A DNA stretch of 64,000 nt from NCBI GenBank assembly GCA_963744305.1, contig CAVUTF010000016.1, positions 77,373-141,372 on the forward strand, read 5' to 3'. The notes under the pieces were generated by a model. The model worked only from the letters and a program-made list of their open reading frames with translations. It was not told where the DNA came from and made no database searches. Shown here one piece after another: positions 398 through 64,000 of this stretch; the first letter of the stretch is position 1; each line of letters opens with the position of its first letter. Source of the stretch: an uncultured Gammaproteobacteria bacterium (GTDB lineage: Bacteria; Pseudomonadota; Gammaproteobacteria; Steroidobacterales; Rariloculaceae). A program made the position numbers and the translations under genes.

Positions 398-534
398 GGC
401 CTTCGGTTGAACGAGGGTGGTGCTAGTATTTGCGCCAGGGGAGATAGCTAACAATGAGAAACCGGCGACCACGAACGGGGCGTTCGGTGTCTAGCTTGGC
501 CTTCAGTGGCGGCGCACTGATGCTCGCCGCGAGC
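398..534 (+). repeat. Promoter + signal-peptide cassette, copy 1
   Basis: Aligns by eye with 2208..2346 (ggccttcggt.gaacgag.g.ggtgcta.tattt...acaatga.aa.ccggcgac...); extended -10-like TGcTAGTAT. Confidence 0.8.
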
Positions 535-1497
535 ATCCAAGTGCCAGCGGCCGCGCATCACTCGACAGCGTTCTACTCGCAGGAAACGATCGAGCTCGAA
601 GGCGAGTTCACGGCAGTCGCATGGGTGAACCCGCACACGCGGTTCGCGCTTCGAACCGTCGACTCAGCCGGCCGCGAAAAGGTCTGGCGCATGGAGGCGA
701 GCGCGATTTCGGCGCTCGCGCGCCGCGGCGTCACCCGCGATTTGTTCAACGTCGGCGATCGCGTCCGGGTCGCCGGGCATCCGTCCACTCGCGATCCGGA
801 CGAATTTCAGTTGACGAACGTCCTCCTTCCCGACGGGCGCGAAGCGTCCTTGTGGCTCGACTCGCCTCCACGGTGGGCGAATTCAGCAGCGATGATCCGG
901 CGCGAGGAGCGCGTGGTCGATGCGGAGCGAGAGAATCGCGGCTATTTCCGGGTCTGGAGCGTGCCGCGGCCAAGCCCCGTGACGCCGCTGAAGCTCGAGC
1001 TCACCGCGGCCGCCGTCGCCGCGCGCGAGTCGTTCGACCTCAAAGACAACTTCGCGACGCGCTGCGGGCCACAGGGCATGCCCGCAGTGATGCTCGGCCC
1101 GCTGCCGTTCGAGATCGTCGATCGCGGTGCCACGATCGAGCTCCGCGCGGAGATTTACGACACGGTGCGCACGATCCACATGGACGTGAGCACGCCGCCG
1201 AGCGACGCACCGGCATCGATCCTCGGCTATTCCGTCGGCAAGTGGGAAGACGGCGATCTCGTCGTCACGACCACGGGCGTCAATTGGCCGTATTTCGACA
1301 ACATCGGCACTCCTCAAAGCAACGCCGTCGAGATCGTCGAGCGTTACACGCTCAGCGACGACCAGACGAGGCTCGATTTTCGCGTCACGGTGCGCGACCC
1401 CGCGACGCTCAAGGGCCCGGCCGAGATCGAAGGACATTGGCTAGCGCTGGGGGAGACGCTGGCACGTTTCGACTGCCAAGCGTCGCGCAGTCCATAG
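454..1497 (+). CDS. Exported DUF6152-family domain fused to a two-Cys partner domain
   Basis: Signal peptide then HHS, WVNPH, WRME; C-terminal RCGPQG, GYSVGKWEGDLVV-type motif, FDC. Confidence 0.75.
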   Translation: MRNRRPRTGRSVSSLAFSGGALMLAASIQVPAAAHHSTAFYSQETIELEGEFTAVAWVNPHTRFALRTVDSAGREKVWRMEASAISALARRGVTRDLFNVGDRVRVAGHPSTRDPDEFQLTNVLLPDGREASLWLDSPPRWANSAAMIRREERVVDAERENRGYFRVWSVPRPSPVTPLKLELTAAAVAARESFDLKDNFATRCGPQGMPAVMLGPLPFEIVDRGATIELRAEIYDTVRTIHMDVSTPPSDAPASILGYSVGKWEDGDLVVTTTGVNWPYFDNIGTPQSNAVEIVERYTLSDDQTRLDFRVTVRDPATLKGPAEIEGHWLALGETLARFDCQASRSP

Positions 1498-2127
1498 TTA
1501 GGGCGTCGCTGGCTCGAGCGGCGGCAGCCTGTAAAAACGACGGAGGCCCGGTCGTGCGGCGTCGAGGTTCGCGAGCGCCAAGTCTTGCAGCCGCGCGACA
1601 CCTTCCGCCCGATCCTGAACGGGCTCGTCGAGCCACACCGCACCAGACGAAATAACCTCGGGGTCGCGGCCATAGAACAGATACACGGCCATGTGGACCA
1701 CTGCTATCAAATCATCACCGCCGGACTCGCTCACCTTCTTTGCGAAATCGCGCATGTCGGTGAGCGTTTTCGCGCTGACTTCCTTGCGCACGGAGTCCAG
1801 CGATGAGCCGGGCCCGATCGCGGCCGGCCGAAGCAACAACACGAGGTCTACCTTGTTTGCCAACATCGTGTCGACGAAGTCTTTATCGTCCACGTCGGTG
1901 ACGGTCGGCACGAGGTCGTAGCTCGTGACCGCGTCGTAATTGTGCTCGCGCGCTTTGGCGACGAACTGGCGCTCGAAATCCGTCCTGAGCGCCGGATCTT
2001 CCGTGAGCGCGACGACGGCAAGCTTGTAGATACGGTCTGGTCGTCCTTGTCCGGACGCGGCAGCCGCGATGCCAAGAGCCGTGCAGATGCAGAGGACTTT
2101 GAGACTCGACATGAGCGAATACTCCAC
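1498..2127 (-). CDS. Hypothetical exported protein
   Basis: 209-aa ORF with N-terminal signal-like segment and normal protein composition. Confidence 0.6.
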   Translation of the reverse strand: MEYSLMSSLKVLCICTALGIAAAASGQGRPDRIYKLAVVALTEDPALRTDFERQFVAKAREHNYDAVTSYDLVPTVTDVDDKDFVDTMLANKVDLVLLLRPAAIGPGSSLDSVRKEVSAKTLTDMRDFAKKVSESGGDDLIAVVHMAVYLFYGRDPEVISSGAVWLDEPVQDRAEGVARLQDLALANLDAARPGLRRFYRLPPLEPATP

Positions 2128-2207
2128 GTTTCCGAACTGATAGTACGCCAGTCACGAGCCGGCCGGCACGGCATCAAAGGCCGACAGGTCAGACACCCGC
2201 CCCGGTT

Positions 2208-2346
2208 GGCCTTCGGTCGAACGAGCGCGGTGCTATTATTTGAGACTGGGGGGACAACAATGAAAAGCCGGCGACAACCGCGAATGGGGCGTTCGGTATC
2301 CAGCTTGGCCTTGATCGGCGGCGCATTGATGCTCGTCGGCGCGAGC
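2208..2346 (+). repeat. Promoter + signal-peptide cassette, copy 2
   Basis: Diverged copy of 398..534; extended -10-like TGcTATTAT. Confidence 0.8.
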
Positions 2347-4751: not shown

Positions 4752-4756
4752 GACGA

Positions 4757-5804
4757 CTACCTCGGCGGTGGGCCTTTGCGGACCGCTTCTAAATCGCCGG
4801 CGGCGCCCCGTACGATCAGATGCGTGACCGCGCCCCGAGCATCCTTGACGAACTCGAAGCCCGTTGGCGTTGCAGTCGACATGAAATGCGTTTCCGATTG
4901 CACGAGCAGCGGCAGCTTGGGCTCGTTCAGACCTTGCACGAACAACAAGTCCCCGGTGACCCTGACGACGATCTCGCGCCCCGGCGCGAGCTCATACGTC
5001 CCCGCGTAGGTCGCGAGCACCTCCGGGCTTACAGTGATCCCGGTGCCGCCGGACATTCGGGCGACGTCACGCTCGTTCTCGCAGACGTCCTCCAGGAGCT
5101 CGGTGTCCGGCACGATCAGCCGCTGCGTTTTCACCGTGAACGGCTTCGTGAAAACCGTGGGGTCGTCGATCGTGATTTCGAAATCCATGTGGCCGAAATC
5201 GCGACGCGTGAAGCGTTCCGTGACGCGCAGGGCTTCGGTTTGCGGATGTCCGGCGCTATCGAGCCAGCCCCTGTCGTTGAAGCCCGCCGACGTCACGACC
5301 AATGTGTCCCCCTCCCATCGCCCGACCGAGTAACCGAGCCAGGTCGGATTCGGGTCCTTCGGCAGGTCGCGGCCGTCGGTGAACACGGTTCGATGCGGGC
5401 TGTTGGGTGACTCGTACAGCAGCACCATGAGCGCCGGGGTCTGGACGATCCGCATCAAGTTGAAGAAATCGTGAAACGGAACGCTGACGGGCAGGCATCG
5501 CGCGAGCGGACTGTCCTTCCGCGAATCCCGCACGCGCTGCAGGAAGAGCTGCCTCCGCCCAGGGCTGAATGTCCTCGGGCGCGAGATCCTGAGCGATGTT
5601 GAAGCGGTAGAGAGGGCCGGCGCCTGTCCAGACGCCGGAAAGATCCGGCTTGCCGTCCGCGGTGCGCGGCGTGGGCGCGAGAAGATCTGGCTTGCCGTCG
5701 GGCAGACGCGGCGTTCCCGGCGTCGGGTAGTTGATCCACTGTGCGGTGGCAGCCGTCGACAGAAGCAATGCCACAACGGCTAGCGCGAAGCGTACCGGAG
5801 ACAC
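4757..5804 (-). CDS. Exported two-Cys partner-domain protein with extra C-terminal domain (frameshift near 5550)
   Basis: Signal peptide, PRTADGKPDLSGVW, ARCLP, GYSVGRWEGDTLVV, EDVCEN; C-terminal LATYAGTYEL domain (DUF3471-like). Confidence 0.7.
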
Positions 5805-6020: not shown

Positions 6021-8470
6021 ATGCGAATACAACATTGGTCACTCGCCGTTGCCGCCGGATTGACCGCCGTCATCGCCGGCATCTTCATGATCGGCGGCGA
6101 TCCGTTGCCGCTGCTCTGGTACGCCAAACGCCGGACATCGGCCTGCTCGCTGACGCGGCCGCAGACCGCCGTGGCCCGTCATCGATCGCTATTGCGTCGC
6201 GTGCCACAACGAGATCGATCTCGCAGGCGGCTTCTCGTTCGAGAAGCTCGACCGCGAAGACTTCCAACGCAACGCCGAGGTCTGGGAAGCCGCCGTGCGC
6301 AAAGCTGCGCACCGGGCTCATGCCGCCGCTCGGCGAGCCGCGGCCCGAGCGCGCGGTGCTCGACGGAATGGCCGCGTTGGTTCGAGCACGAGCTCGACGC
6401 GGCGTGGGCGCGCGCGCCGAATCCCGGCGCGAAGCCTGCTCGCGCGCCTGAACCGCACCGAGTACGCGAACGCGATTCGCGACCTGCTTGGCGTACGACG
6501 CGAGGGCGATCGCGAGCGCGCTGCCGCCCGACGCGTCCGTCGGCGGCTTCGACAACAACGCGTCTGCGCTCAGCGTGTCGCCGACGCTGCTCGAAGGCTA
6601 CGCGCAGCCGCGATGCAGATCGGCCGCCGCGCGGTCGGCGACCGCTCGATGGGCCACGGCGAGGTGCGCTACACGGCGTGTCGGGCGGCCGGCGCAGCAG
6701 CGGCACATCGAAGGTTTGCCGCTCGGCACTCGCGGCGGCCTCGCCGTCGAGCACACGTTCCCGCTCGACGCCGAGTACGAGTTCGTCGTGTCGGCAGCGC
6801 TTCCGGCCGCCGGCTGGGAAAACCCGACCGGGCAAGATGGTCTAGTGCAACGGGCCGACGGTGGACATCACGTTCAACGGCGCGCCGCTTCGCGGTGGAT
6901 GATCACGCGGCGCTTCCGTCTGCGCGTGCCGGCGGGCCCGCAGCGCATCACGGTCGCGCTCGTCGACGAGCGAGCGCTGCGCCGGCGTCAACGAGCTCTA
7001 CTCGGGCGAGGTCGGCGCTCGGCGGCGCCGATGCTGGCGCTCGACGATCGACGGGCCGTTCAACGCGACCGGGCGTCGGCGATACGCCGAGCCGCCGCGA
7101 GATCTTCGTCTGCCGTCCCGGCTCGGCCGCCGAGGAGACGCCGTGCGCGGAGCAAATCCTCTCGCGCCTCGCGACGCGCGCATATCGCCGCCCCGTTCGA
7201 GCCGGCGGCGACGAAATCGGCGGAGCTCATGCAGCTTCTATCGCAATGGGCCGCGAGGAGGGCGGCGACTTCGAGCTCGGCATCCAATACGCGTTGTCGC
7301 GCATGCTCGTGGATCCGCGGTTCCTCTATCGATTCGAGCGCGAGCCCGCGGAGCTTGCCGTCGGCGACGTCTACCGCATTGGCGACTTCGAGCTCGCGTC
7401 GCGCCTGTCGTTTTTCCTCTGGAGCAGCATTCCGGACGACGAGTTGCTCGCGCTCGCCGCGAGGGGACGGCTCGGCGACCCGGCAGTGCTCGCGGCGCAG
7501 GTCGAGCGCATGCTCGCGGACGAGCGCTCGGCGGCGCTCGTCGAGAATTTCGCGAGCCAATGGCTGATGCTGCGCGAGCTCGACGAGCGTCGTGCCGCAG
7601 GATCCGGATTTCGACGAGGATCTTGCGCGCAGCGATTCGCCGCGAGACGGAGCTGCTTGTTCGCCGACTCGTGCGCGAGCCGCGCAGCGTGCTGACGCTG
7701 CTCGACGCGGATTACACGTATCTTGAACGAGCGCTTGCGGCGCACTACGGCGTCGACAGGCGTGCGCGGCAGCCACATGCGGCGCGTCGCGTGGCCGGCC
7801 GGACAGCCCGCGGCGCGGCGTGCTCGGCCACGGCAGCATTCTCACGGCGACGTCGGCGCCGAACCGCACGTCGCCCGTCGTGCGCGGCCAGTGGCTCATG
7901 CAGAGCTTGCTCGGCGCGAAGGTGCCGACGCCCGCCGCCCGGCGCCGAGGCCGATCTCTCGGCGGAAGCCAGCGAGTCGGAAGGGCTCGTCGGCAACACG
8001 GTCCGCGAGCGCTTGGAGCTGCACCGCGCCAATCCGACCTGCGCGGCTGCCACGCGAATCATGGACCCGCTCGGCTCTGCGCTCGAGAACTTCGATCTGC
8101 TCGGGCGGTGGCGCGACAGCGAGGACGGGCACGCCATCGATGCCTGCGGCGCGGATGGTCGACGGCACGGAGCTGCGCGGGCCGCAGGATCTGCGCGCGC
8201 GCGCTGCTCGCGCGCTCGGACGTGTTCGTTGCGGCGATGACGGAGCGGCTAATGACGTACGCGATGGGGCGCGAGCTCGAGAGCCACGACATGCCGGCCG
8301 TGCGCGGCGTCGTGCGCGCGGCCGCGCGCGAGGGCTACACGCTGCGCGCGCTCGTGCAAGCGATCGTCGCGAGCGATACGTTCCAGAAACGCGTGAAGAC
8401 CGGCGGCGCCGTCGTGCCGACGCTGAGCAGTCCGCGACGGGCCTGCTGGCGCAGCGAGGCGCCGAACTGA
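6021..8470 (+). CDS. Planctomycete-type cytochrome c with DUF1587/1595/1592/1588/1585 domains (multiple frameshifts)
   Basis: YCVACH, RLNRTEYANAIRDL, ELASRLSFFLWSSIPD, NRTSPVVRG, ALENFDLLGRWR, RLMTYAMGR spread across frames. Confidence 0.85.
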
Positions 8471-8489
8471 TCTTGCGGAGGCTGCCGTC

Positions 8490-9776
8490 ATGCGTTACCT
8501 GACGAAGAAACACCTCTCGCGCCGCACGCTGCTGCGCGGCGCCGGCGTCGCGCTCGCGCTGCCGCTGCTCGAGTCGATGATCCCGGCCGCGGCGCGGCGG
8601 GCGTGGGCCGCGGGCGAGCCGCCGGCGCGCGTCGCGTTCATGTACATCCCGCACGGCGCCGTCATGGACCGCTGGATGCCGGCCGGCGCCGGCGGCGAGC
8701 TCGAGCTCGGGCCGACGATGCAGTCGCTCGAGCCGTTGCGCGAGCCGGTTGAACGTCGTCAGCGGCTTGACGCTGCCGGCCGCGTACGTCGGCGAGGCGA
8801 CGGCCGGCGCGAATCACACGCGCTCGTCGCGCTGCTGGCTCACGTGCGCGCCGCTCGACACGGGCGCGTCGCCGACGTCGGCCGATCAAGTCGCGGCCGC
8901 GCACATCGGCCAGGAGACGCCGCTGCCGTCGCTCGAGCTCGCGCTCGAGAGCGGCGAGTCGATCGCGTATCGCACGCCGACGACGCCGCTGCCGATGGAG
9001 ACGAACCCGCGCGTCGTGTTCGAGCGCTGTTCGGCGACGGCAGCACGCCCGAGGAGCGCGCCGCGCGCCAGCGGCAGTTCGCGAGCTTGCTCGACGCCGT
9101 CGCGGGCGAGGTCGCGCCGCTGCAGCGCGAGCTTGCCGGCCGCGGACCGCGAGCGCCTCGACCGCTATCTCACCGACATCCGCGAGCTCGAGCGCGGCTC
9201 GCGCTCGCGGCCGATTCGCCGCTGGCCGACCTCGACGTTCCCGACAAGCCGAACGGCGTCCCGGCGGATTTCGAGGAGCACGCGGCGCTGATGTTCGACT
9301 TGCTCGCGCTGGCTTGGGCCGCGGATCTCACGCGCGTCGCGACGCTGCTGGTCGCGCGCGAGCTCAGCAACCGCGTCTATCCGCGCAGCGGCATCACGGA
9401 AGGGTTCCACAACTGCTCGCACCACTCGGAGGTGCCGGCGAACATCGATCGGCTCGCGACGCTTAACGAGTACCACACGCGCACGACGATCGGCTACGTT
9501 GCTGCAGAAGCTTGCAGGGCACGCCGGACGGCGACGGCAGCTGCTCGATCACTCGCTCGTCGTCTACGGCAGCGGCATGAGCAACTCGAATCAGCACGAT
9601 CACGCATCCGCTGCCGATGCTGCTCGCGGGCGGCGGCGCGGGGCGCTTGCAAGGCGGGCGGCACATCCGCGCGGCCGAGGACACGCCGGCCGCGAATTTG
9701 CTGCTCGGCGTGCTGCAGCAAGCTCGACGTGCCGCTCGAGTCGTTCGCCGACAGCACGGGCGCCGTCGAGATTTGA
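8490..9776 (+). CDS. DUF1552 (HXXSHH) family protein (frameshifted)
   Basis: Tat-like SRRTLLRGAG, YIPHG, SADQVAA, FHNCSHH, YGSGMSNSNQH. Confidence 0.85.
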   Translation: MRYLTKKHLSRRTLLRGAGVALALPLLESMIPAAARRAWAAGEPPARVAFMYIPHGAVMDRWMPAGAGGELELGPTMQSLEPLREPVERRQRLDAAGRVRRRGDGRRESHALVALLAHVRAARHGRVADVGRSSRGRAHRPGDAAAVARARARERRVDRVSHADDAAADGDEPARRVRALFGDGSTPEERAARQRQFASLLDAVAGEVAPLQRELAGRGPRAPRPLSHRHPRARARLALAADSPLADLDVPDKPNGVPADFEEHAALMFDLLALAWAADLTRVATLLVARELSNRVYPRSGITEGFHNCSHHSEVPANIDRLATLNEYHTRTTIGYVAAEACRARRTATAAARSLARRLRQRHEQLESARSRIRCRCCSRAAARGACKAGGTSARPRTRRPRICCSACCSKLDVPLESFADSTGAVEI

Positions 9777-12438: not shown

Positions 12439-12888
12439 ATGAGCCGCCCACTGCCGAAAATCGTGATCACGGGCGCGCTGCTCGTCGGTGCGCAGATCGC
12501 CTCCGGTCATCACTCGGTGAGCTCGAACTTCGACATGAGCAAGATGATCGAAGTGCGCGGCACGGTTGCGGCGGTGCACATTCGCAATCCCCATTCCCAA
12601 TTCGCCCTCGATGTCGCCGCGGCGGATGGCACGACCCAGCAATGGCTCATCGAGTGGTCCGACAGAAACTCGTTGATTCGCCGCAAGGTCGACATAGACC
12701 GCATCAAGGAAGGGGACGAATTGACGATCACGGCCTGGCCTAGCCGGCGTCTCGAGCACGTGGCGTATTTCGTCCGCGCGATTCTTCCGGACGGGTCGAC
12801 GTTTCGCGATTGCGGCTTCGGCGAGTTTCGCGAGGCCGTGGCGCAGTCGCGAGAGTTCAGTTGTCCGGACGCACAAGGCGGGCCATGA
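12439..12888 (+). CDS. DUF6152-family exported protein
   Basis: Signal peptide then HHS, IRNPHS, WLIE. Confidence 0.75.
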   Translation: MSRPLPKIVITGALLVGAQIASGHHSVSSNFDMSKMIEVRGTVAAVHIRNPHSQFALDVAAADGTTQQWLIEWSDRNSLIRRKVDIDRIKEGDELTITAWPSRRLEHVAYFVRAILPDGSTFRDCGFGEFREAVAQSREFSCPDAQGGP

Positions 12889-13583
12889 CGAGCATGGCGA
12901 GCTCCGTGGCTCGGATCACGGTCAGCCTAGGCGCCATCGTCGCGTTTTCGGCGGCGCCTTGCGTCGCCGCGGAGCGATCGGATCTCGATGGCGTCTGGCT
13001 TCTACTGAATACGACACCGCCCGACGACTTGCACCTTACCCCGGCCGCCGAAGCCGCTATGGCGAGCTACGATCCGTTGCGCGACGACAGCGATCTCAAG
13101 TGCGTGCCCGTCAGCTTCACGAACATCATGAACACGCCGTCGCCGCCGTTCGAGATTCGCCAGCGCGGCGATTACGTGGAGATCAACTACGAGTTCATGG
13201 ACGTGCGGCGGCGCGTGCCGCTCGATCCCAAGCTCACCGTCGACACGGCTCCACCGACCGTGCCCGAGCATCCGCACCTGGGCCGCTCGATCGGCCGTTA
13301 CGACGGCGCAACGCTCGTCGTGGACACTGCGGGACAACGCGCCGGCGCGCTCGATACGTTCACGGTCGTCGGCCTGCCGCAGTCCGATCGCATGCGCACG
13401 GAGGAGCGCTTCACGGCGAGCGGCGACGAGCTTGAAGCCGTGGTGACGCATGAGGATCCCGTCTATTACTCGGCGCCGCTGATCATGACGTACCGATTTC
13501 ACCGGCTCGATTCGCCGATTCTCGAATGGGGCTGCACGGTGGAAGCCGCGAACTACGATGAGCGGCTGCCCGAGCGGCCGTAG
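12885..13583 (+). CDS. Exported two-Cys partner-domain protein
   Basis: ATGA overlap with the upstream gene; DLDGVW, KCVP, GRSIGRYDGATLVV, EWGC. Confidence 0.7.
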   Translation: MTSMASSVARITVSLGAIVAFSAAPCVAAERSDLDGVWLLLNTTPPDDLHLTPAAEAAMASYDPLRDDSDLKCVPVSFTNIMNTPSPPFEIRQRGDYVEINYEFMDVRRRVPLDPKLTVDTAPPTVPEHPHLGRSIGRYDGATLVVDTAGQRAGALDTFTVVGLPQSDRMRTEERFTASGDELEAVVTHEDPVYYSAPLIMTYRFHRLDSPILEWGCTVEAANYDERLPERP

Positions 13584-15160: not shown

Positions 15161-15262
15161 GGTCATCGGTCGGCTCCGCCGCCCGGGGCGCACGTCGCCG
15201 CCGCGGCCCATCGTGAGCTAGGGCGTGCCAGCGCCGCTGCTCGCTATCTTGATGGCGCCGGT

Positions 15263-44666: not shown

Positions 44667-44791
44667 CGACGAGCCTCCGACATCCTTGTGCGGAAAACCA
44701 GCCGCGATCATTTCAGGGCATGCCTCTGCGCAAGTGCAGCCCACATTTCTCTGCGAATCGGCGAGATTACGTACGGCGCTCGTGTGGCATC

Positions 44792-46658: not shown

Positions 46659-46715
46659 CGCTCTCGACGGGCCGACCCTATGCTGGTTCGAGGCATGAGA
46701 TTAAGGGTTGGCAGA

Positions 46716-47447
46716 ATGCGAAGCGCGAGATTCGGCTTGGGCTTGTTGTGGTCGTTGAGCGGCGCATTGCTCGGCGGCGTGGCGTTCCCGGCCGAGCATC
46801 CGGACTTCACGGGCGTTTGGGGCAACTACCGCGATCCTGCAGCGCCGCCCGGACGCGGCGGCGGCGGGTCGGCGCGCCCGTGCCCTGCCGCTGCGCCCCG
46901 AGGCCAAGCCAAGGTCGACGAATATCGTGCGTTGGTCGCGCCCACGCGGCGATACGCCCGGCGGCTTTTGCCTTGGCACCGGCATGCCGGGCGCGATGCT
47001 CGGCTCCGGCGGTTATCCGATGGAGATCGTGCAGCACGACGATCTGATCATCGTCGTGTACGAAGCGCATGCCGAAATCCGCAGAATCTACATCACCGCG
47101 CGCGCGAAGGAAGGAGATCTCTTCCCGGATCGCAACGGCTACTCGATCGGTCGCTGGGATGGCGACAAGCTGATCGTCGAGACCACGCATCTGAAGGAAG
47201 CCGTGGATCAGGCGCGCTATCCGCACAGCGATGAGGCGAAGATCGTGGAGGAGTACACGCTCGTCACGAACGAGGACGGCAGAAGGTGCTGACTTCGAGC
47301 ATGACGATGACCGATCCCACGTTCTACACGGAGCCGATCACGGCCGAGAAGAAGTGGCGTTCCTAGCCCGGAGTGCGCCTGCTTCCCTACGAGTGCAACG
47401 AGCCCGCGTGGGACGAGCATCTCGAAGAGTTGCGCAACCAGGGGTAG
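46716..47447 (+). CDS. Exported two-Cys partner-domain protein (frameshifted)
   Basis: PDFTGVW, FCLGTGMP, GYSIGRWDGDKLIV, YECNE. Confidence 0.7.
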
Positions 47448-47473
47448 AGTCGCGAGATTGGCGGAGCTGGATC

Positions 47474-47837
47474 ATGAAGAAGCTATCGATTTGCGCTCTG
47501 CTCGCGATTGTCGCGAGTGCACCGCTGGTCTCCAACGCGCATCACTCGGCCGCGCGTTTCGATCTCTCGATCCGCGACAACTACGGTGACCGGAATCGTC
47601 AAGGAGTTCAAGGCCGCGAATCCCCATACGAAAATCGTGCTCGAAGTCACGGACGAAAAGGGCACGCGCGACATAGAGTTCGAAGGCCATAGCCGCAACA
47701 ACTACTATCGCGGCGGTTGGCGCGACGGCATGGTGAAACTCGGCGACAAGATCACGCTGCAGTCTGCGCCGACCCGCGACGGCAGCGACGGCGGCTACGC
47801 GCTCGGCGTGATCGCGGCGGACGGCACGAAGTTTTAG
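47474..47837 (+). CDS. DUF6152-family exported protein (frameshift near 47585)
   Basis: Signal peptide then HHS, ANPHT, IEFEG. Confidence 0.72.
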
Positions 47838-47865
47838 CCACAGGTTTGCGGCTGCATGCGCGAGA

Positions 47866-56531: not shown

Positions 56532-56535
56532 CGAA

Positions 56536-57124: not shown

Positions 57125-57324
57125 TGCATCGTCAGTCCGTGCGTCAGAGACCAAGGATCGGATCGACGCACCTCAGAGGACCTCCAAGTCCTCCGATGGT
57201 TGGGCGGGGGTTGGCGAGCTTCTGCGGCGGCACGTGATAGCGGTCAGTTTTGCGCTGACCGTAAGGAGGACTCTATCGCACGCGCGAACTCCGATACGAA
57301 ACTCAACAATCGAGGAGAGCGAAC
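57125..57324 (+). ncRNA. Candidate structured 5' leader RNA, copy A
   Basis: Several stems conserved with 59817..60027, including pairing-preserving changes; not recognised as a known family. Confidence 0.55.
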
Positions 57325-58599
57325 GTGACAAGATCAACAGTTCTTACGAGCCTTGCCGCCTGCACTATCCTGGGCTGGGCGGCGTCCGTCGAAGCAAACG
57401 TCGTCGCCGAGTGGAACGCGCTGGCGGTGCAATGCACGGGTGCGCATCGAGGCGCTCCGGGGCAAGTGCTCGACATCGCCATCGCGCAAGCAGCCGTGCA
57501 CAACGCCGTGCAAGCGATCGAGGGGCGCTACGAGCCCTACCTGGCCGGCGTTTCGGCGACGGGTGGCGAGTCGAGGGCTGCCGCCGCCGCGGCGGCGGCC
57601 TACAACGTGCTCGCAACGGTCTGCCCCAACTCGGTGGCGACGCTGCTCGCCCCCGCGTTCAAACCTTATCTCGACGGCAACGATCCGGGGCTCGCGGTGG
57701 GCGCCGCCGCCGCCACGCAGCTGCTCGCGAAGGTCCGTCCGGCGCCGGCAATGACGTTCATCGGCGGGACCGGCGCGGGTGAATGGCAACCACAACCGCC
57801 CGCAACGAATATGGCATTCGTGTACCTGGCCACGACCGAGCCTTTCACGATGACATCGCCCACGCAATTTCTTCCAGGGCCTCCGCCAGCGATGACCAGC
57901 GAGAGGTACCTGCGCGATTACAACGAAGTCAAGGAGCACGGGAACATCGAAAGCCACCCTCCGGCCCCTGCGTGTCCCGCACCGCGGGAGACCGATATGG
58001 CTCGCTTCTGGGGGGGCAACTTAATCTTGCAATGGAACGACACTGTTCGGAACATCGCGGTAGACCGGCAGCTCTCGATCGGAGAGACGGCGCGGCTGTT
58101 GGCGCTCGCGACATTTGCAGGGGCCGACGCGCTCATAGCCGTTTGGGACAGCAAGATCCACTACAATTTTTGGCGGCCGATCGCCGCCATTCGCCGCGCC
58201 GACGAGGATCCTAACGCCGAAACCGAGCGAGACGTCGACTGGATACCATTCATCCAGGGGCCGCATTTCCCCCCGGGGTCGCAGACGCCTGCCTATCCCG
58301 ACTATGTCTCAGGCGCAAACGGCGTGACCGGAGCGTACGTGACGATCCTGCAGATGTACTTCCGCACGAATGCGTTCAGGTTCGAGATCTACAAAGGGAC
58401 TGCACCTTCGGTCGCGATTTGCACTAACCCACGCACATTCCGCCGCTTCTCGGATGCCGCACAAGAGGTCGTAGACGCTCGGATCTTGCTGGGCATTCAC
58501 TTCCGCTTCGCGGACACCGAGGCGCGCAGGTTGGGTGCCCGCGTGGGTTTCTGGACGTTCACGAACGCACTGCGGCCGGTTGGCCACGGCGGCGAGTAG
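57325..58599 (+). CDS. Exported vanadium-dependent haloperoxidase / PAP2-superfamily protein 1
   Basis: KIHYNFWRP, TPAYPDYVSGAN, ARILLGIHFR. Confidence 0.85.
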   Translation: MTRSTVLTSLAACTILGWAASVEANVVAEWNALAVQCTGAHRGAPGQVLDIAIAQAAVHNAVQAIEGRYEPYLAGVSATGGESRAAAAAAAAYNVLATVCPNSVATLLAPAFKPYLDGNDPGLAVGAAAATQLLAKVRPAPAMTFIGGTGAGEWQPQPPATNMAFVYLATTEPFTMTSPTQFLPGPPPAMTSERYLRDYNEVKEHGNIESHPPAPACPAPRETDMARFWGGNLILQWNDTVRNIAVDRQLSIGETARLLALATFAGADALIAVWDSKIHYNFWRPIAAIRRADEDPNAETERDVDWIPFIQGPHFPPGSQTPAYPDYVSGANGVTGAYVTILQMYFRTNAFRFEIYKGTAPSVAICTNPRTFRRFSDAAQEVVDARILLGIHFRFADTEARRLGARVGFWTFTNALRPVGHGGE

Positions 58600-58651: not shown

Positions 58652-58739
58652 TCAATTCTGGTATCCGGGCTTGCAATTGTAGGGCTCCGGATCCCAGGGG
58701 CTGCGGACGAACAGCTCTTTCTGGGTGAAGGGTTCCTTT
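58652..58739 (-). pseudogene. 3' tip of a DUF6152-fusion gene (copy of the end of 61861..62847)
   Basis: Encodes FTQKELFVRSPWDPEPYNCKPGYQN*, identical in protein to the intact gene. Confidence 0.8.
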
Positions 58740-58740
58740 C

Positions 58741-59556
58741 ATTCACCACGACATCTGGGATTGGGATAACCCGACCTCGCCGATCCTGCTCGACGTCGTC
58801 GTCGACGGCCGGCCGGTCGGTGCCGGCGTCCGACGTGCCGTTCGAGTGGACGTCGCCCACTCAGCCGTTTCCGACGAAGCCGGCCGCCTACGATCGCCAA
58901 GGCGTCCTCGAGAGCGGCTTGATCGACTTCACTCCGGCGCTCAAGGCCGCCGCGCTGGAGTCCGTGAAGGGTTTGCGGATGGGCCGATGTTCACGCCGTC
59001 GTCGCTGCTCGAATCGCCGGACGGCGCCCTGGGCACGCTCGTGCTGCCGCACTACGGGGGCGGGGCGAACTGGGAGGGCGGGGCGGCGGATCCGGAAACC
59101 GCCATGCTGTAGCAGGCGACCGCTCGGATGTTCGCTATCTGTTCGTCAACGGCAAAGCTCCGAAGCCGATAGGCCTGCCGCTCGTGAAGCCGCCATGGGG
59201 ACGGATCACCGCGATCAACATGCACACCGGCCAGCATGCGCGGATGGTCGCGAACGGCGAGACGCCCTACGCGTGAAGAATCACCCGGCGTTAAAGGCTG
59301 GAACATTCCGCGCACGGGCAAGCCAAGCCGTGCATTGCTCCTGGTGACCAAGACGCTGCTGATCGCCGGCGAAGGCTACGGCGGCGCGCCGATGCTACGC
59401 GCGCACGACAAGGCAACGGGCGAGATCATCGCCGAGATTCCATTGCCGGGCGGCCGCGAGCGGCAAGCCGATGACCGCTCGTGGCGGGCGGCAAGCAATA
59501 CATCGTGCTCGCAGTCGGCCGGGAGACGGGAGCTCGTGGCGTTGGCCTTGCCATGA
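58741..59556 (+). pseudogene. Truncated, internally deleted PQQ glucose/quinate-type dehydrogenase
   Basis: [46 protein letters not shown]; N-terminal half absent, in-frame stop and gaps. Confidence 0.8.
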
Positions 59557-59812: not shown

Positions 59813-59816
59813 CGCG

Positions 59817-60027: not shown

Positions 60028-60138
60028 GTGACAAGATCAAGAGTTCTTACCAGCCTTGCCGCTTGCACCGTATTGGGCTCGGCGGCATCCGTCCTCGTTC
60101 CCCCCAATAACGAAAAATCTGGTTGGAGGCACCAATGA
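60028..60138 (+). other. Vestigial signal-peptide ORF of haloperoxidase 1; its stop overlaps the haloperoxidase 2 start (ATGA)
   Basis: MTRSRVLTSLAACTVLGSAASVLVPPNNEKSGWRHQ* versus MTRSTVLTSLAACTILGWAASV. Confidence 0.65.
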
Positions 60139-61478
60139 AGAACCATACCAAGCACTTGGCGGCTGCTACGTTGCTCGTCGCCATGGGTGTTTTTGCGGCG
60201 CACGTCGAGGCGCAGAACACGGTCATCGAGTGGAATCAGCTCGCGGGCCAGTTCGTCGCTGGTCCGCCGCAGTCGCAACTTCGACAGTACGCGATCATCC
60301 ACGTTGCGATGGCAGATGCGGTCGTTGCGATCGAAGGGCGCTACGAGGCGTTCAAGGTCGGTTTGACTGCGCCGCGCAGCGCCTCGGCGAACGCGGCGGC
60401 TGCCCAAGCGGCTCACGATGTGCTGGCCGCGTTTCTTGCTGCCGGTACGCCGGGCAGAACGGCGATCGATGCCAAGCTCGCGGCGGACCTCGCCACGATC
60501 CCACCGGATCAGAGGGCTCTCGGCGTGGAGGTCGGCGGCAGACATCGCCGCAATCGGTCCTCGCCTGGCGCGCAACCGATGGCTTCGCGGAGCGCCAATC
60601 CGCTTCCTCCGGCATTCCCGCCGGCACTCCTGCCGTCGGTGTTGCCGGGAATTTGGGTGCCCACGGCATCAGGTCCGGCGCAGTTATCAAAGCTGGGCGA
60701 CGTCGAGCCGTTCGCCGTGCTCTCGTCGACGCAATTCCTGCCGGACCCGCCGCCGCAGCTCGAGAGCGCCGAGTACGCAGCGGACGTCAACGAGGTCAAG
60801 AACGAGGGGGAAAGGCCTGTTCCTTACCCCACCTCCTGCGATGACCCATCGATAGTGGGCAGGCAGAGGATTGCGCTCGTGTGGGCTGCCACACCACCCT
60901 GCGGAAGCGTAACGACCGCCTTCCGCGTGTGGCATAACGTCGCGCGCGACATGGCCCAGGAAGACCGGCTGTCCTTGGTTGAGACGGCGCGGCTCTTCGC
61001 GTTGCTAACCACATCGCAGTTCGACAGCGTTCAAACCTCACAGAACAGCAAGTTCGTCTATCGCCTGTGGCGTCCCGAGACGGCCATCGCGAATGCGGGC
61101 GCCGTCGGCAGCGACCCGGACTACGATGACAATCCTCTCACCGACGGGCAGCCCGGTTGGGTACCGCTGCTCGTGACGCCGCCCTATCCGGCGTACTCGA
61201 GCAACATGCAGTGCATCGGCGCCGGCGGGGCGGGCATACTGCGCAACTTTTTCGGCGACAACAGGCCCTTCAAGGCGACGTGGTACTTGAACAATACGGC
61301 GACGTCACCGGTCGTGCGCGCGGAGAACTACCCAAGCTTCACGGACCTCGAAGTCGAAGAGGGTAACAGTCGAGTCTGGGGCGGCATCCACTTCCGGTTC
61401 GATCTCACGGAAAGCATTGAGAGCTGCAATGCAGTCGCGGACTACATCTTCGACAACAAGATGCAGCCGGCAATCTAG
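60135..61478 (+). CDS. Exported vanadium-dependent haloperoxidase / PAP2-superfamily protein 2 (compensating indels near 60540-60590)
   Basis: RBS GGAGG; KFVYRLWRP, TPPYPAYSSNM, SRVWGGIHFR. Confidence 0.85.
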   Translation: MKNHTKHLAAATLLVAMGVFAAHVEAQNTVIEWNQLAGQFVAGPPQSQLRQYAIIHVAMADAVVAIEGRYEAFKVGLTAPRSASANAAAAQAAHDVLAAFLAAGTPGRTAIDAKLAADLATIPPDQRALGVEVGGRHRRNRSSPGAQPMASRSANPLPPAFPPALLPSVLPGIWVPTASGPAQLSKLGDVEPFAVLSSTQFLPDPPPQLESAEYAADVNEVKNEGERPVPYPTSCDDPSIVGRQRIALVWAATPPCGSVTTAFRVWHNVARDMAQEDRLSLVETARLFALLTTSQFDSVQTSQNSKFVYRLWRPETAIANAGAVGSDPDYDDNPLTDGQPGWVPLLVTPPYPAYSSNMQCIGAGGAGILRNFFGDNRPFKATWYLNNTATSPVVRAENYPSFTDLEVEEGNSRVWGGIHFRFDLTESIESCNAVADYIFDNKMQPAI

Positions 61479-61617: not shown

Positions 61618-61745
61618 GAGGTCGTCGAAGCCCGCATCTTGCTCGGCATTCATTTCCGCTTCCCGGACACGGAGGGGCGCAAGTTGGGCGCCCGCGTGGC
61701 TTTCTGAACGTCACAACATTGCTGCGGCCGCTGCGCCATGACGGC
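61618..61745 (+). pseudogene. 3' remnant of a haloperoxidase-1-type gene
   Basis: EVVEARILLGIHFRFPDTEGRKLGARVAF*, matching about 58465..58590. Confidence 0.8.
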
Positions 61746-61774
61746 TTCGGCGGCAAACACGACAGAGGCGCGAA

Positions 61775-61797
61775 GGGGCGGGCGTTTCGCCTGCCCC
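61775..61797. terminator. Hairpin paralogous to 58617..58637
   Basis: ggggcgggcg-ttt-cgcctgcccc. Confidence 0.55.
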
Positions 61798-61860
61798 ATC
61801 GCTAATCGACGACGTAGCTGAGTCACGCCTCAGTTGCGGAAGGCTACACCGCGCGCGTGC

Positions 61861-62847
61861 TCAATTCTGATACCCGGGTTTGCAATTGTAAGGTTCCGGA
61901 TCCCACGGGCTGCGCACGAACAGCTCTTTCTGGGTGAACGCTTTCTTGAAATAGGCCGGGTCGTCGATGACCCAGGTTATCTCGAGCTCGCCGGCCGCAT
62001 TCACCTCGAGCCGCTCCATGAGCTTTAAATCCTGCGTATGCATGACTCCGAAGCGGGGCTCGAGAGTCGCCGAAACGAAGTAGTCGGTCGTCACGACCAA
62101 TACCGCGCCTTCGAAGTGTCCGCGTGAATAGCCCATCGTGCCGCGTGCGAAGTCCGCGGGGCGCGGCGCGTCGTCGAGGTACACGATGCGCTGCGTGTCC
62201 ATGAAACGATGAACGATCACGACGCGATCTTGCTCGCGCCGGATCTCGAACGGCTCGTTCACGTTCACCCAGAAACGCACGGGGCTTGCAGGATCGCAGT
62301 AGATTGCCGGATCGTCCTTGATCGGATCGAACGCCGCACGGGCGCGCTCACCCGCCTCGGTGAGCGCGCCGTCGTATCGCGAGACGGCGAACCGCTTCAT
62401 CGTCCAGATGCCGATGATCGAGCCGCGCTCGGCGGGAAGCTCGCGGCCGGAGGCCACCGTTGGGGCGAACAGCGTCGTGCTATCGAGCACGCTGCCGTCC
62501 GCGAAGTGCGCCATGCGCAGCGCGCAGCCGGTCGGATTGTGGCGCGCGGCAACGCCGTCGATCGTGATCGGGTCGCCCGGTTTGAATGTGTCCTGTCTCA
62601 GCCCATTGCGCGACAGCACGCTGCGCGATGCCATTTCGCAGTTCCATACTTGTTTCTGGCCGCCGGCGTCCAAGGTCTCGATGTAGACGAATGAGTGTGG
62701 ATTGATGAACTCGAACTTCGAGACGATGCCCTCGATCTTGACGGGTTTGCTCGTGTCGTAATGCGGCGCAACGCCGTGGTGGGCGAAGCAAGTCGCGCTC
62801 AATACTAGACCGATCAGTGCGATTCGACTCTGTGCGGCGGCATGCAT
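61861..62847 (-). CDS. Exported DUF6152 domain fused to a two-Cys partner domain
   Basis: Signal peptide then HHG, FINPHS, WNCE; YCDP, GYSRGHFEGAVLVV, YNC. Confidence 0.78.
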   Translation of the reverse strand: MHAAAQSRIALIGLVLSATCFAHHGVAPHYDTSKPVKIEGIVSKFEFINPHSFVYIETLDAGGQKQVWNCEMASRSVLSRNGLRQDTFKPGDPITIDGVAARHNPTGCALRMAHFADGSVLDSTTLFAPTVASGRELPAERGSIIGIWTMKRFAVSRYDGALTEAGERARAAFDPIKDDPAIYCDPASPVRFWVNVNEPFEIRREQDRVVIVHRFMDTQRIVYLDDAPRPADFARGTMGYSRGHFEGAVLVVTTDYFVSATLEPRFGVMHTQDLKLMERLEVNAAGELEITWVIDDPAYFKKAFTQKELFVRSPWDPEPYNCKPGYQN

Positions 62848-62993
62848 CGCGCGCTCCCGTGGGCCCGGCAGGGCACATCTGCCGGCCGTTTCCGCGGAGT
62901 ATGACGCAGCCGGAAACCGCTGGGTATCCGATGCCTTTGAACGGCACCGGCGCTCCTGCTACCGTTGCTCGAAGACCTTCGGAGGCTGGAAAA

Positions 62994-64000
62994 ATGACCG
63001 CGAACCGATTCTGCGTGCCCGGGCTCCTGATCACGTCGTTTGCATTCACGCCGGTCTGGGCTCAACGCATCGGCGAGGGTCCCGGAGCTCCTCCGTCGGC
63101 GCTGCGCTCCGTTCCCGCCGAGACAATTGCAGCCGCCGTGAAGGACCCAAAGTGGCGCGCGCCACGTACTACTTGGGGCCATCCGAGCCTCGAGGGAGTC
63201 TGGAGCGTCGACGACATGCGCGGGATCCCACGCGACCGGCCTGAGAGCTTCGGCTCCCGCGACACGCTGACTCCGGAGGAGTTCTTCGAGCGGGCGAGCA
63301 TGCAGCAGGGCGGCAAGAATCGGGCTGCGGAGACGGAGACTTTCCTGCGTAACGAGTGGGGCACTCGCACCTTCGGCTTCGCTTCACTCGTGGTCGATCC
63401 GCCGAACGGCAGGGTTCCCGAGATGACCGCGGCTGGCAAAGCGCGTGCAGCGGCCGTCGGCAACCAAGGCACGTTCAGCGACACCACGTTCGACACGTTC
63501 GAGGACTTCAGCCTCTACGACCGCTGCATTACGCGCGGCATCTTCGGTTCCGTCCTGCCGTCGATCTACGGCAACGGCATCCGGATCGCGCAAAGTCCGA
63601 CGACGGTGTCGATCACCTACGAAATGATCCACGACACACGGATCGTTCAACTCGACGGGCGCCCGCACGTGACCGACGACGTCCGACCAGTACATGGGGA
63701 ACGCGCGCGGCCGTTGGGAGGGCGATACGTTGGTCGTCGAGACGACAAACTTCACGGACAAGACGAGCGTCGGCGCGCGGGGTCCGCACAGCGACAAGCT
63801 CAAAGTGACGGAACGCTATCGGCGCGTAGACCCGGAGATGATCGAATACCGTGCGACGATCGACGATCCCGAGACGTACACCGCGCCGTTCACTTACCGC
63901 GTGATGTTTACCACTCAGCCGAACTACGAGGTGTACGAATACTCGTGCCACGAGGGCAACAGTGCCGTCGCCGGCGGCCTCTCGGGCGAGCGCGCCTACG
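62994..64000 (+). CDS. Exported two-Cys partner-domain protein, long form (frameshift near 63690; runs off the window end)
   Basis: RBS GGAGG; PRTTWGHPSLEGVW, DRCITRG, YEMIHDTR, GRWEGDTLVVET, EYSCHEGN; not called in the ORF track. Confidence 0.75.
   Translation, partial: MTANRFCVPGLLITSFAFTPVWAQRIGEGPGAPPSALRSVPAETIAAAVKDPKWRAPRTTWGHPSLEGVWSVDDMRGIPRDRPESFGSRDTLTPEEFFERASMQQGGKNRAAETETFLRNEWGTRTFGFASLVVDPPNGRVPEMTAAGKARAAAVGNQGTFSDTTFDTFEDFSLYDRCITRGIFGSVLPSIYGNGIRIAQSPTTVSITYEMIHDTRIVQLDGRPHVTDDVRPVHGERARPLGGRYVGRRDDKLHGQDERRRAGSAQRQAQSDGTLSARRPGDDRIPCDDRRSRDVHRAVHLPRDVYHSAELRGVRILVPRGQQCRRRRPLGRARL

Follow-up and report, generated by a model that had tools for sequence, protein, structure and literature searches.

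What is the function of the DUF6152 proteins of this gammaproteobacterium? The window (the whole 64,000-nucleotide stretch of DNA that we analyzed) has six loci that encode a DUF6152 domain (D), a partner domain (P), or both. The explanation that we favor overall, and to which we would give an even chance, is that D and P form an exported metal-site unit with a ligand barrel.

The six loci and their frame breaks

All six loci described in an earlier note on this DNA are present, as judged by our own HMMs for both domains. But only three of the six have open reading frames in this sequence. Frame breaks interrupt 46716-47837, 4757-5804, and 62994-64000, and the earlier note had read through them without mention. 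The features are as follows (a slash marks the predicted signal peptide cleavage):

454..1497, + strand: fused D-P gene, intact, 347 amino acids (translation; Pfam DUF6152, E = 3.2e-18; our own HMMs), with a signal peptide to 555 (..PAAA/HHS), D (DUF6152, modeled as an OB fold) at about 553-840, and the predicted P barrel at about 937-1488
4757..5804, - strand: P-only gene that encodes a signal peptide and ends with DUF3471 at the C-terminus; one frame change in the assembly
12439..12888, + strand: stand-alone D gene, 149 amino acids (..ASG/HHS, NPH, and two C-terminal Cys; Pfam E = 1.5e-20)
12885..13583, + strand: stand-alone P gene, 232 amino acids from the ATG (P HMM at 12978-13553)
46716..47447, + strand: P gene of a P-then-D pair; at least two frame changes and one in-frame stop (three-frame reading)
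47471..47837, + strand: D gene of the P-then-D pair (..SNA/HHS, NPH); one frame change (the 3' piece matches Pfam with E = 1e-14)
61861..62847, - strand: fused D-P gene, intact, 328 amino acids (..CFA/HHG; Pfam E = 6.7e-23)
62994..64000, + strand: long-form P-only gene; one frame change near 63680; reaches the end of the window

The four D domains match Pfam's DUF6152 (PF19649) with 54.8-81.1 bits (E = 1e-14 to 7e-23), and the gathering cut-off is 27 bits. As the earlier note had claimed, the translations of all four have HH(S/G), an NPH motif, and a later Glu; a small residue precedes HH in each. Its description of P was right about the two Cys, which are kept in all six P domains, but the W of the motif G.S.G.W(E/D)G..LVV is replaced by F in 61861-62847 and by Y in 12885-13583.

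Several loci need further description. The locus at 4757-5804 consists of two overlapping ORFs in different frames, with the P HMM matching at 5069-5527; its DUF3471 match has E = 9e-7 (29.7 bits, versus a cut-off of 29.3). The D gene at 12439-12888 sits within a merged 488-amino-acid ORF, which results from a broken frame in the hydrolase gene upstream. (It has 65 homologs, all with PF19649.) For the P gene of this split pair, the most likely start, judging from the sequence, is the ATG at 12885 rather than 12810. This ATG overlaps the stop codon of D as ATGA, and this 4-base gene overlap suggests coupled translation. The fused protein at 61861-62847 has 357 homologs at E <= 0.001, and the 120 that were listed are 63-84% identical to it. 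In the long-form gene at 62994-64000, the P HMM matches at 63480-63963, in two frames, and the part of the lid that runs from the GVW strand to the first Cys is about 100 amino acids longer. About 20 ORF pieces in the genome have this type of N-terminus. A further D and P follow this locus beyond the end of the window, at the equivalent of 64280-65153.

The breaks are most likely assembly indels, because housekeeping genes are broken too, while orthologs from the same genus and near-identical contigs are not. The other broken genes in the window are an amidase (13618-15213), a DUF1552 gene (8427-9773), a recQ-like helicase (44570-46655), and PQQ pieces (58729-59273). The pair at 46716-47837 requires at least three frame changes overall and has one in-frame stop, yet at the orthologous loci of 46650-47850 in the same genus, P and D are each in a single frame (5/5). 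Relative to near-identical contigs from four public runs, the window has 1-base indels at 46698, 46946, 47281/2, 47462, and 47584/5, and these positions fall in the stretches where the window's reading frames change. Although the frame changes and the stop might suggest that the family has over-expanded and that the three broken loci are pseudogenes in decay, the intact orthologs, the indels, and the similar damage to housekeeping and enzyme genes make this extremely improbable.

An expanded family of exported pairs

The six loci in the window are a large undercount of the family, whose presence is far beyond chance. A genome-wide count of paralogs, which the earlier note had proposed, found at least 147 D and at least 197 P domains in about 200 loci, again with our own HMMs. 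Of these loci, 58 have P only and 25 have D only. The paralogs are very diverged (the median distance is 0.68 among D domains and 0.73 among P domains). All 18 of the genomes that we compared from the same genus have 52-113 or more matches to D. Across the phylum, 44 of 400 genomes have a match, and 39 of the 44 have just one. Overall, this is a hugely expanded and unstudied family of exported two-part proteins, and the expansion is lineage-specific.

The proposal that D and P are an obligate two-part exported unit fits the data well. Four lines of evidence (gene fusion, the 4-base overlap, co-divergence, and a model of the complex) support a 1:1 unit, either as a pair or as one chain. First, this genome encodes 26 single-frame D-P fusions, and 46 of the best 150 P representatives are fusions with D. 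Second, D and P from the same locus diverge together: the Mantel correlation is 0.515 and was as high in 0 of 999 permutations. The nearest neighbors of D and of P agree for 21 of 58 pairs. The gene order flips at least three times on well-supported branches. Finally, the complex modeling that the earlier note had suggested for a split pair (D at 12439-12888 with P at 12885-13583) gave a score of 0.72, versus 0.00 for the best of three controls. Among solved complexes, 116 of 157 attain a mark of 0.72, as do 2 of 215 mismatched pairs, although these counts are only rough, with our own alignments being used. At least 72% of the contacts agree between runs, and the pLDDT of the partner is at least 88.

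Folds, the interface, and gene neighbors

We then considered the D domain. Every copy of D that covers the start of the profile begins with HH (131/131). Of 130 copies, 128 have A, G, or S just before HH (position -1), 124 have A, V, L, S, or T at position -3, and 122 have a hydrophobic core upstream. By the (-3,-1) rule and the hydrophobic core, these sequences support His at position 1 of mature D after cleavage by signal peptidase, as had been claimed. The His of NPH is nearly invariant (143/144), and W46 and E49 are 83% and 81% conserved. No conserved Met is present in the D profile (150 copies from the genome). In an AlphaFold2 model of the mature 61861-62847 protein (pLDDT = 91.6, pTM = 0.87; residues 1-4 of this single-chain model have pLDDT below 50), D appears to be a small OB-fold domain. 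The D part aligns to SSB/PriB-type OB folds with Z = 7-8.8; the matches include SSB-type OB folds at Z = 8.8 (rmsd of 3.4 over 85 aligned residues).

P has no family match in Pfam or NCBIfam, even at E <= 5. Its conserved residues are the two Cys, R79, E136, and D154, and the W of the GxW first strand is invariant in A1. The model matches SAHS/FABP barrels (Z = 9.0, rmsd of 3.2, 116 aligned residues); the best matches are SAHS (9.0), nanoKAZ (8.9), LBP-8 (8.5), and nitrobindin (7.6). The similarity to FABP/calycin barrels (Z of 8-9 over 103-118 residues) is rated as middling by the tool. So far as the model indicates, P is a two-Cys FABP/calycin-like barrel with a helical lid, from an unnamed family. 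One Cys is in the lid and the other is in the C-terminal tail, and they probably form a disulfide.

In the modeled complex, the interface includes residues 1-3 (HHS), 26-31 (RNPHSQ), N54, and R58 of D, and D42, E75, and 187-190 (including C189) of P. HHS and NPH lie in one patch, which is compatible with a histidine brace but is not a geometric measurement. All of the family-wide invariant residues of D are within the modeled interface, and their conservation in the D-P forms could be partly structural. The residues named in the interface do not include the invariant R, E, and D of P, so these three need not be part of a single composite site.

D-only relatives with no P nearby are informative here. 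All 15 retain A/HHGW and an NPH- or PPH-type motif, which argues that HH and NPH do not serve solely to dock P. (Conservation of the Glu does not extend to this subfamily.) Also, in 15/15 of these loci, a DUF6644-like gene is immediately downstream on the same strand. Overall, 18 of 20 low-copy loci have D next to genes for CopD-like DUF6644 membrane proteins, and 3 of the 5 low-copy loci with both D and P have two tandem DUF6644-like copies within 2.5 kb. One DUF6644 copy passes Pfam's threshold for CopD (36 bits versus a cut-off of 32.1). In this genome, 6 of the 12 DUF6644-like loci are within 2 kb of a module, versus at most 16% expected (binomial p = 0.006). No DUF6644-like hits were found on the window's contig, and none of its six loci has one nearby.

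Other neighbors are less consistent. The earlier note had placed the expansion beside PQQ, heme, and vanadium enzymes. For PQQ dehydrogenases the association is weak: pieces of these genes are 1.9-fold enriched within 3 kb (22/75 versus a base rate of 15.5%), and only 11 of 200 loci have one within 600 bp. Among the ORFs of the window that were scanned with Pfam, none matched a vanadium enzyme. Pieces of TonB-dependent receptors are 2.3-fold enriched within 3 kb (31/85). No family of same-strand neighbors is common to more than 7 of 200 loci.

Possible functions and known systems

The adjacency of D to DUF6644 echoes CopC/CopD and YcnI/YcnJ, and therefore a metal site at the D-P junction seems likely. 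That D-only relatives keep HH and NPH beside DUF6644 would strengthen a metal-site or chaperone role. We infer metal binding, the identity of the metal, binding of ligands by the barrel, and any catalysis, as follows. The D-P unit would be exported by Sec to the periplasm, where signal peptidase would leave His-His as the mature N-terminus of D. HHS and the NPH loop would pack on P's lid and C-terminal Cys region, which, by analogy to FABP, would be the mouth of the barrel. D might bind a mononuclear metal (our first guess is Cu(II)) via the free N-terminal amine and His1, together with His2, the His of NPH, and perhaps the conserved Glu. This site may derive from a simpler ancestral cassette of D alone with a CopD-like four-helix DUF6644 membrane protein. 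In the D-P form, the barrel would set a variable small-molecule pocket over a constant metal site, and each paralog would be a metal-dependent binder or enzyme with a different periplasmic ligand. Such specificity would explain why this lineage has about 150-200 copies in each genome.

Several observations run counter to a metal site with a ligand barrel: the 58 P-only and 25 D-only loci, the roughly 190 of 200 modules with no DUF6644 gene nearby, the Glu that the D-only subfamily does not conserve, the 55 ORFs around the D-DUF6644 cassette with no copper-specific gene among them, and the OB fold, which to our knowledge is unlike that of any histidine-brace protein. Also, most FABP-like barrels simply bind a ligand and have no enzymatic activity. 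A bolder form of this explanation, which we consider unlikely, would make D-P a new class of two-component metalloenzyme in the periplasm. An N-terminal His-His/His(/Glu) metal center on the OB fold would sit over the mouth of a FABP-like substrate barrel, with the metal loaded or the site reduced via the CopD-like DUF6644, and would have radiated to 150-200 substrate-specific paralogs in one soil gammaproteobacterial genus. If true, this radiation would parallel those of P450s or LPMOs elsewhere.

Alternatively, D-P might only capture or chaperone a metal, with no organic ligand. The metal would be handed to DUF6644 importers or to periplasmic metalloenzymes, and P would only shield or gate the site. 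This accounts for the adjacency to DUF6644, the match to CopD, and the modeled position of HH and NPH at the interface covered by P, and CopC, YcnI, and 'anglerases' have been proposed to act alike (PMC12362106, PMC8424229, and PMC12537917). But it leaves unexplained why there are 147-197 diverged paralogs and only about 12 DUF6644 loci, and why P has invariant R, E, and D outside the named interface. Also, we found no copper-specific or other metal-homeostasis genes among 55 ORFs flanking the D-DUF6644 cassette. We give this alternative a small but real chance.

Another alternative, which we view as improbable, involves no metal. P would bind diverse small hydrophobic or aromatic molecules, and D would be an adaptor whose HH and NPH dock P and a shared membrane partner. 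Bug/TctC proteins are an analogy: they are expanded periplasmic receptors with few shared membrane components. The FABP-like fold, the location of all of D's invariants in the interface, the excess of modules over membrane partners, the enrichment of TonB-dependent receptors, and the many P-only loci all fit. But packing alone can hardly explain a strictly invariant His-His at the mature N-terminus, which is kept even in D-only proteins, and P varies where it contacts D (mean identity of 0.24 in the interface versus 0.34 for the rest).

Finally, the His could be axial ligands of heme or another cofactor at the mouth of the barrel, making D-P a tetrapyrrole carrier or a redox relay, with DUF6644 passing electrons instead of metal; this is very improbable. 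In its favor, nitrobindin heme barrels do match P (Z = 7.6 and 7.0), DUF6644 does have one invariant His in transmembrane helix 1 and often occurs as tandem pairs, and there is a modest enrichment of PQQ/cytochrome c dehydrogenases in the neighborhood, but we found no heme-binding motif or family match, those Z scores are in the range that the tool calls common, and the DUF6644 model has no informative match in PDB.

Returning to a metal site with a ligand barrel, how does D-P compare to known systems? In histidine-brace cuproproteins (LPMOs, CopC, and X325), cleavage of the signal peptide exposes His1. D resembles them, an analogy already drawn in the earlier note, in the predicted exposure of His1 and in having a further invariant His, but D-P lacks a carbohydrate context. 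D does not have the Ig-like or cupredoxin-like sandwich of LPMO/CopC, as the confident model (pLDDT = 91.6) has an OB fold. CusF and SilF are periplasmic OB-fold chaperones for Cu(I)/Ag(I), and D is likewise a periplasmic OB fold and a putative metal carrier. But with no conserved Met across 150 copies, D does not have their His-Met-Met (+Trp) site, and it would use its N-terminus instead.

D resembles CopC/CopD (YobA/YebZ in E. coli) and YcnI/YcnJ of B. subtilis in being small and exported, with a predicted mature N-terminal His as its key conserved feature, and, for the D-only relatives (15/15), in being encoded beside a CopD-superfamily membrane gene. Unlike those proteins, D has an OB fold, two N-terminal His plus NPH, and a half-size, four-helix membrane partner (DUF6644). 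The barrel P, the partner of most copies of D in this genome, has no counterpart in the Cop or Ycn systems. According to PMC8424229 and PMC12362106, extracytoplasmic proteins with an N-terminal His bind Cu(II) and act together with proteins that have a CopD domain, and both binding and exchange of Cu(II) were shown for YcnI and YcnJ.

Other families with an N-terminal His bind nickel or other metals (PMC12537917). These 'signal strapping' families (the Ni-binding DUF4198, DUF6702, and anglerases) are exported and have confirmed metal binding, and some are attached to membrane permeases. D is likewise a bacterial exported protein with a conserved mature N-terminal His and no assigned function, although the folds differ. 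In the part of the main text of PMC12537917 available to us, DUF4198, DUF6702, and DUF916 are named and DUF6152 does not appear. The preference for nickel in two of those cases warns against assuming that D binds copper.

Lastly, P resembles FABP/iLBP, SAHS, and nitrobindin (the calycin superfamily) in its modeled barrel, where a G-x-W first strand is followed by a helical lid. It differs from them in being exported, in its lid-to-tail Cys pair and its invariant R, E, and D, and in its obligate pairing with D.

Module loci in the window and in the genome

The module consists of D, the DUF6152 domain (PF19649), and P, a two-Cys barrel partner domain; D-P and P-D give the order of the two domains or genes. 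We read the window loci, by translation, as follows.

454-1497, + strand: fused D-P gene, intact, 347 aa
4757-5804, - strand: P with a C-terminal DUF3471 domain, one frame change
12439-12888, + strand: D of a split pair (D then P), intact
12885-13583, + strand: P of the same pair, intact; the ATG at 12885 is the most likely start
46716-47837, + strand: P-then-D pair, at least 3 frame changes needed and one in-frame stop
61861-62847, - strand: fused D-P gene, intact, 328 aa
62994-64000, + strand: long-form P, one frame change near 63680; extends past the window end

All six loci described in the earlier note are present, but three of them (46716-47837, 4757-5804, and 62994-64000) are frame-broken rather than open as it had described them. 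Its sequence motifs were borne out, except that the tryptophan of G.S.G.W is phenylalanine in 61861-62847 and tyrosine in 12885-13583. As a count, six was far too low, as there are about 200 loci genome-wide. Pfam's DUF6152 model matches all four window D domains (E from 1e-14 to 7e-23), and Pfam has zero matches in any window P domain.

Using the two fused proteins as tblastn queries, we found at least 128 D and at least 153 P segments in the genome. A profile search of the 6.13-Mb genome, with D and P profiles made from the window copies and one iteration, found at least 147 D and at least 197 P instances at 200 loci. These are 66 D-P, 58 P alone, 26 P-D, 25 D alone, and 25 compound loci. 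Single-frame D-P fusions number 26 in this genome, and single-frame P-D fusions number zero.

This expansion is extreme and specific to the lineage, which we consider established by computation, because counts are high in the genus and low elsewhere. All 18 same-genus genomes searched have from 52 to at least 113 DUF6152 matches. In contrast, among 12 genomes that represent other families of the order, 11 have none and the twelfth has a single match. Of 400 other genomes sampled evenly across the phylum, 44 match, 39 of them exactly once and none more than 8 times.

In public data, a single-sequence search with the P barrel returned at least 1552 clusters at 50% identity (E ≤ 0.001). The best 150 of these are 94 P alone (many of them fragments), 46 D-P, and 10 P-P, and the D domains within these representatives start with HH in 45 of 45 cases. 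Longer P fusions were absent at E ≤ 0.001 among 4492 candidates, which is weak evidence. Close homologues carry the source name "DUF6152 family protein [Gammaproteobacteria bacterium]".

Two features of the window copies stand apart. The C-terminal tail of the stand-alone D (part of 12810-12888) has two cysteines, C102 and C119, which are invariant among 35 orthologues; the fused forms are without the tail. Also, an 84-base remnant at 58655-58738 (- strand) encodes 28 residues matching the C-terminus of the 61861-62847 protein with 93% identity. It adjoins broken pieces of a PQQ dehydrogenase, and a past duplication or recombination may have left it there.

The frame breaks of the window loci are most likely assembly errors, for three reasons. 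First, other window genes are split over frames in the same way: among 148 window ORF pieces scanned with Pfam, these include an amidase (13618-15213), a DUF1552 gene (8427-9773), a recQ-type helicase (44570-46655), and a PQQ dehydrogenase (58729-59273). Second, P and D are each in a single frame in all 5 same-genus loci orthologous to 46650-47850 (78-81% DNA identity). Third, single-base indels distinguish contigs of public runs from the window at positions 46698, 46946, 47281/2, 47462, and 47584/5, which fall within the stretches of 46716-47837 where the window frames shift. (The contigs come from four runs, and some have 1-3 differences per 150-217 bases from the window. None of the public runs sampled for words of 46650-47850 had half or more of them.) On the same three grounds, we rejected the reading of the broken loci as pseudogenes. 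Contigs from RNA libraries cover parts of both genes of 46716-47837; such coverage is no proof of transcription. Overall, the assembly appears to be rich in single-base indels, and the genome's estimated completeness is 82%.

D and P as an exported pair

We consider it established by computation that D and P form an exported, obligately paired unit of an OB fold and a barrel, with export assigned by a sequence rule, and that the mature His-His of D, at the predicted cleavage site, is invariant. Among the genome's D copies that cover the profile start, HH is at the predicted mature N-terminus in 131 of 131. As is classical for signal-peptidase I sites, A, G, or S occupies position -1 (128 of 130) and A, V, L, S, or T occupies position -3 (124 of 130), preceded by a hydrophobic core in 122 of 130. 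The D paralogues are only about 30% identical, yet they keep the histidine of NPH (143 of 144), W46 (83%), and E49 (81%). Similarly, the P paralogues (also about 30% identical) keep the two cysteines, R79, the G-S-G-W-G-LVV hairpin, E136, and D154.

An AlphaFold2 model of the mature 61861-62847 protein, made from 56 aligned sequences, has a pLDDT of 91.6 and a pTM of 0.87, and only residues 1-4 are below 50. In a fold search with this model, D is an OB fold (top match, a small SSB: Z 8.8, rmsd 3.4, 85 aligned) and P is a FABP/calycin-type barrel with a helical lid (SAHS, Z 9.0; nanoKAZ, 8.9; nitrobindin, 7.6); as the Z values are only middling, these matches name the type of fold and not the family. 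By sequence, P matches no family of Pfam or NCBIfam even when the threshold is relaxed to E ≤ 5 or 1, its only two PDB profile matches are at chance level (E 0.5-0.8), and its Atlas matches are unnamed clusters only.

Five loci form a three-part sub-type, with an unnamed exported segment of about 400 aa between D and P (C16:6238-8322, C26:78508-80662, C46:18076-20224, C9:264360-266494, and C9:282078-283999, by contig). The segment has no Pfam or NCBIfam match, and all 9 ORF pieces of its family sit in these loci, between D and P. It is probably an N-terminal extra domain of P, as segment and P share one open frame in two of the loci.

The proposal of an obligate two-part unit found support. 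Besides the 26 fusions, the start codon of P in the window's split pair (12885) overlaps the stop codon of D as ATGA, an arrangement typical of coupled translation. Across 58 intact pairs, D-D and P-P distances correlate (Mantel r 0.515, with 0 of 999 permutations as high), which demonstrates co-duplication but need not imply co-adaptation. In 21 of the 58, the closest D and the closest P come from one and the same other locus. On a joint tree, the fused forms fall mostly within one clade, and the D-P and P-D orders intermingle; well-supported branches require the order to have changed at least 3 times. (Some of the "split" rows inside fused clades may be assembly frameshifts.)

A model of the split-pair complex also supports binding of D to P. 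It scored 0.72, whereas none of the 3 controls exceeded 0.00; at least 72% of contacts are shared between runs, and the partner has a pLDDT of 88 or more. Of 157 solved complexes, 116 reach a score of 0.72, as do 2 of 215 mismatched pairs; because we used our own alignments, these rates apply only approximately here. The modelled interface involves residues 1-3 (HHS), 26-31 (RNPHSQ), N54, and R58 of D. On the P side it involves D42, which precedes the first conserved Cys by three residues, together with E75 and the stretch 187-190, where C189 is the second conserved Cys. The interface residues of D are better conserved among orthologues than its other residues (0.80 vs. 0.61), and those of P are more variable than its others (0.24 vs. 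0.34), with P57, E75, and C189 as exceptions. By analogy to FABP, the helical lid and tail of P may form the mouth of the barrel, so the HH/NPH patch would cover the barrel's entrance.

Neighbouring genes in this genome

The earlier note placed the module next to PQQ, heme, and vanadium enzymes. Our neighbourhood check found at best a weak tendency of this kind, and no vanadium enzyme in the window ORFs scanned (including 57265-58596 and 60111-61475), which is not proof of absence.

Families enriched near modules, in ORF pieces (within 3 kb; base rate 15.5%; counts are pieces from a frame-broken assembly, are not independent, and are uncorrected for the roughly 50 families tested)
FAD-linked oxidases: 8 of 10 (about 5 of 7 genes)
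Beta-lactamase-family esterases: 8 of 14
TonB-dependent receptors: 31 of 85
PQQ dehydrogenases: 22 of 75
Sorbosone-type dehydrogenases: 7 of 18

No neighbour is common to the 200 loci: no family occurs on the same strand, 600 bp away or less, at more than 7 of the 200. The modules are therefore mostly self-contained and are dispersed among genes for periplasmic catabolism and uptake.

We also noticed several other features. Pfam matches neither of the long ORFs 57265-58596 (+, 444 aa) and 60111-61475 (+, 455 aa) at E ≤ 0.01; one of them may be the supposed vanadium enzyme. All 5 copies of a small secreted family that weakly matches DUF1554/endostatin-like models (E 0.01-0.02) lie about 300 bp or less from a D/P module (C27:186925-187692, C27:206992-207651, C6:113329-114069, C6:153518-154222, and C7:54576-55292). 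Other very large paralogue sets among the families of neighbouring genes, in ORF pieces genome-wide, are Ser/Thr kinases with PD40 repeats (159), TonB-dependent receptors (85), PQQ dehydrogenases (75), MacB/FtsX permeases (65), and the DUF1592/1585/1588 family (58). In the window, 49625-53211 (- strand) encodes a DUF4350 region and then a MoxR-type AAA ATPase in one open frame. A DUF58/VWA protein adjoins it, and an RDD-family gene (47812-48624) and a SpoIIM-like gene (48588-49622) lie upstream.

A CopD-like membrane partner and a putative metal site

We then examined 12 kb of sequence surrounding DUF6152 matches in 20 genomes from other families, all low in copy number (one match in 19, two in the remaining genome). 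In 5 of the 20 loci, D is near the window type, and P is adjacent or fused in 4 of these. The other 15 have a diverged stand-alone D with no P nearby. These D proteins still start with HHGW right after an alanine, and they keep an NPH- or PPH-type motif. Because these residues are conserved where P is absent, HH and NPH cannot, judging from sequence, be a surface for docking P only.

Directly downstream of the stand-alone D, on the same strand, is a gene for a four-helix membrane protein of about 160 aa (15 of 15 loci), and 3 of the 5 D+P loci have two tandem genes of this type within 2.5 kb. The membrane genes beside D match Pfam's DUF6644, a CopD-like family. Several weakly match DUF2214, and one DUF6644 gene passes the CopD model (36-37 bits versus a cut-off of 32.1). 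A single His in helix 1 is invariant across the DUF6644 proteins, which also conserve D, R, K, W, and GR. The genome under study has 12 DUF6644-like loci, 6 of which have a module no more than 2 kb away, versus 16% or less expected (p 0.006); none is on the window's contig. We consider an ancestral link of D to CopD-like membrane proteins established by computation. A model of DUF6644 (pLDDT 92.9) has no PDB match at E ≤ 0.001, with generic helical bundles only. The flanks of the low-copy cassettes (55 ORFs from 20 loci) have no gene for homeostasis of copper or another metal and no common third gene.

What might D and P do? The unit may be an enzyme, a receptor, or a metal carrier. D would bear a putative metal site at the barrel mouth, and the P barrel would supply a variable ligand pocket. 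This combination would explain a constant set of motifs in 150-200 diverged paralogues. Several observations go against it. The Glu of D is not kept in the D-only relatives; P-only and D-only loci are common; and the invariant R, E, and D of P are not among the named interface residues. Also, FABP-like barrels are usually binders. On balance, we lean very slightly toward D carrying a metal site. That the metal is copper in particular is rather doubtful, a catalytic role for D-P is unlikely, and a categorically new class of metalloenzyme is slightly less likely still.

Our literature search found no paper that names DUF6152, DUF6644, or the module. The module accounts for about 200 loci in a 6.1-Mb genome. 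If D does bind a metal, the known periplasmic metal-handling systems would grow, and there would be a first clue to the role of about 3% of the genes in an abundant group of soil and rhizosphere bacteria. The OB fold would be a new scaffold for a putative N-terminal-histidine metal site and the calycin barrel a new type of partner, with a link to half-size CopD-like membrane proteins. The module should be easy to test, as the sequences are small, soluble, and exported.

According to excerpts of published work, other N-terminal-His families bind nickel and further metals (PMC12537917), so the metal of D should not be assumed. In CopC/CopD and YcnI/YcnJ, as described in excerpts of two other papers, an extracytoplasmic N-terminal His binds Cu(II) and a CopD-domain protein is found alongside (PMC8424229, PMC12362106). 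Similarly, D has an N-terminal His and is encoded beside the CopD-like DUF6644, with the metal in D putative. By this analogy, the module would align with the extracytoplasmic N-terminal-His metal proteins that have CopD-type partners.
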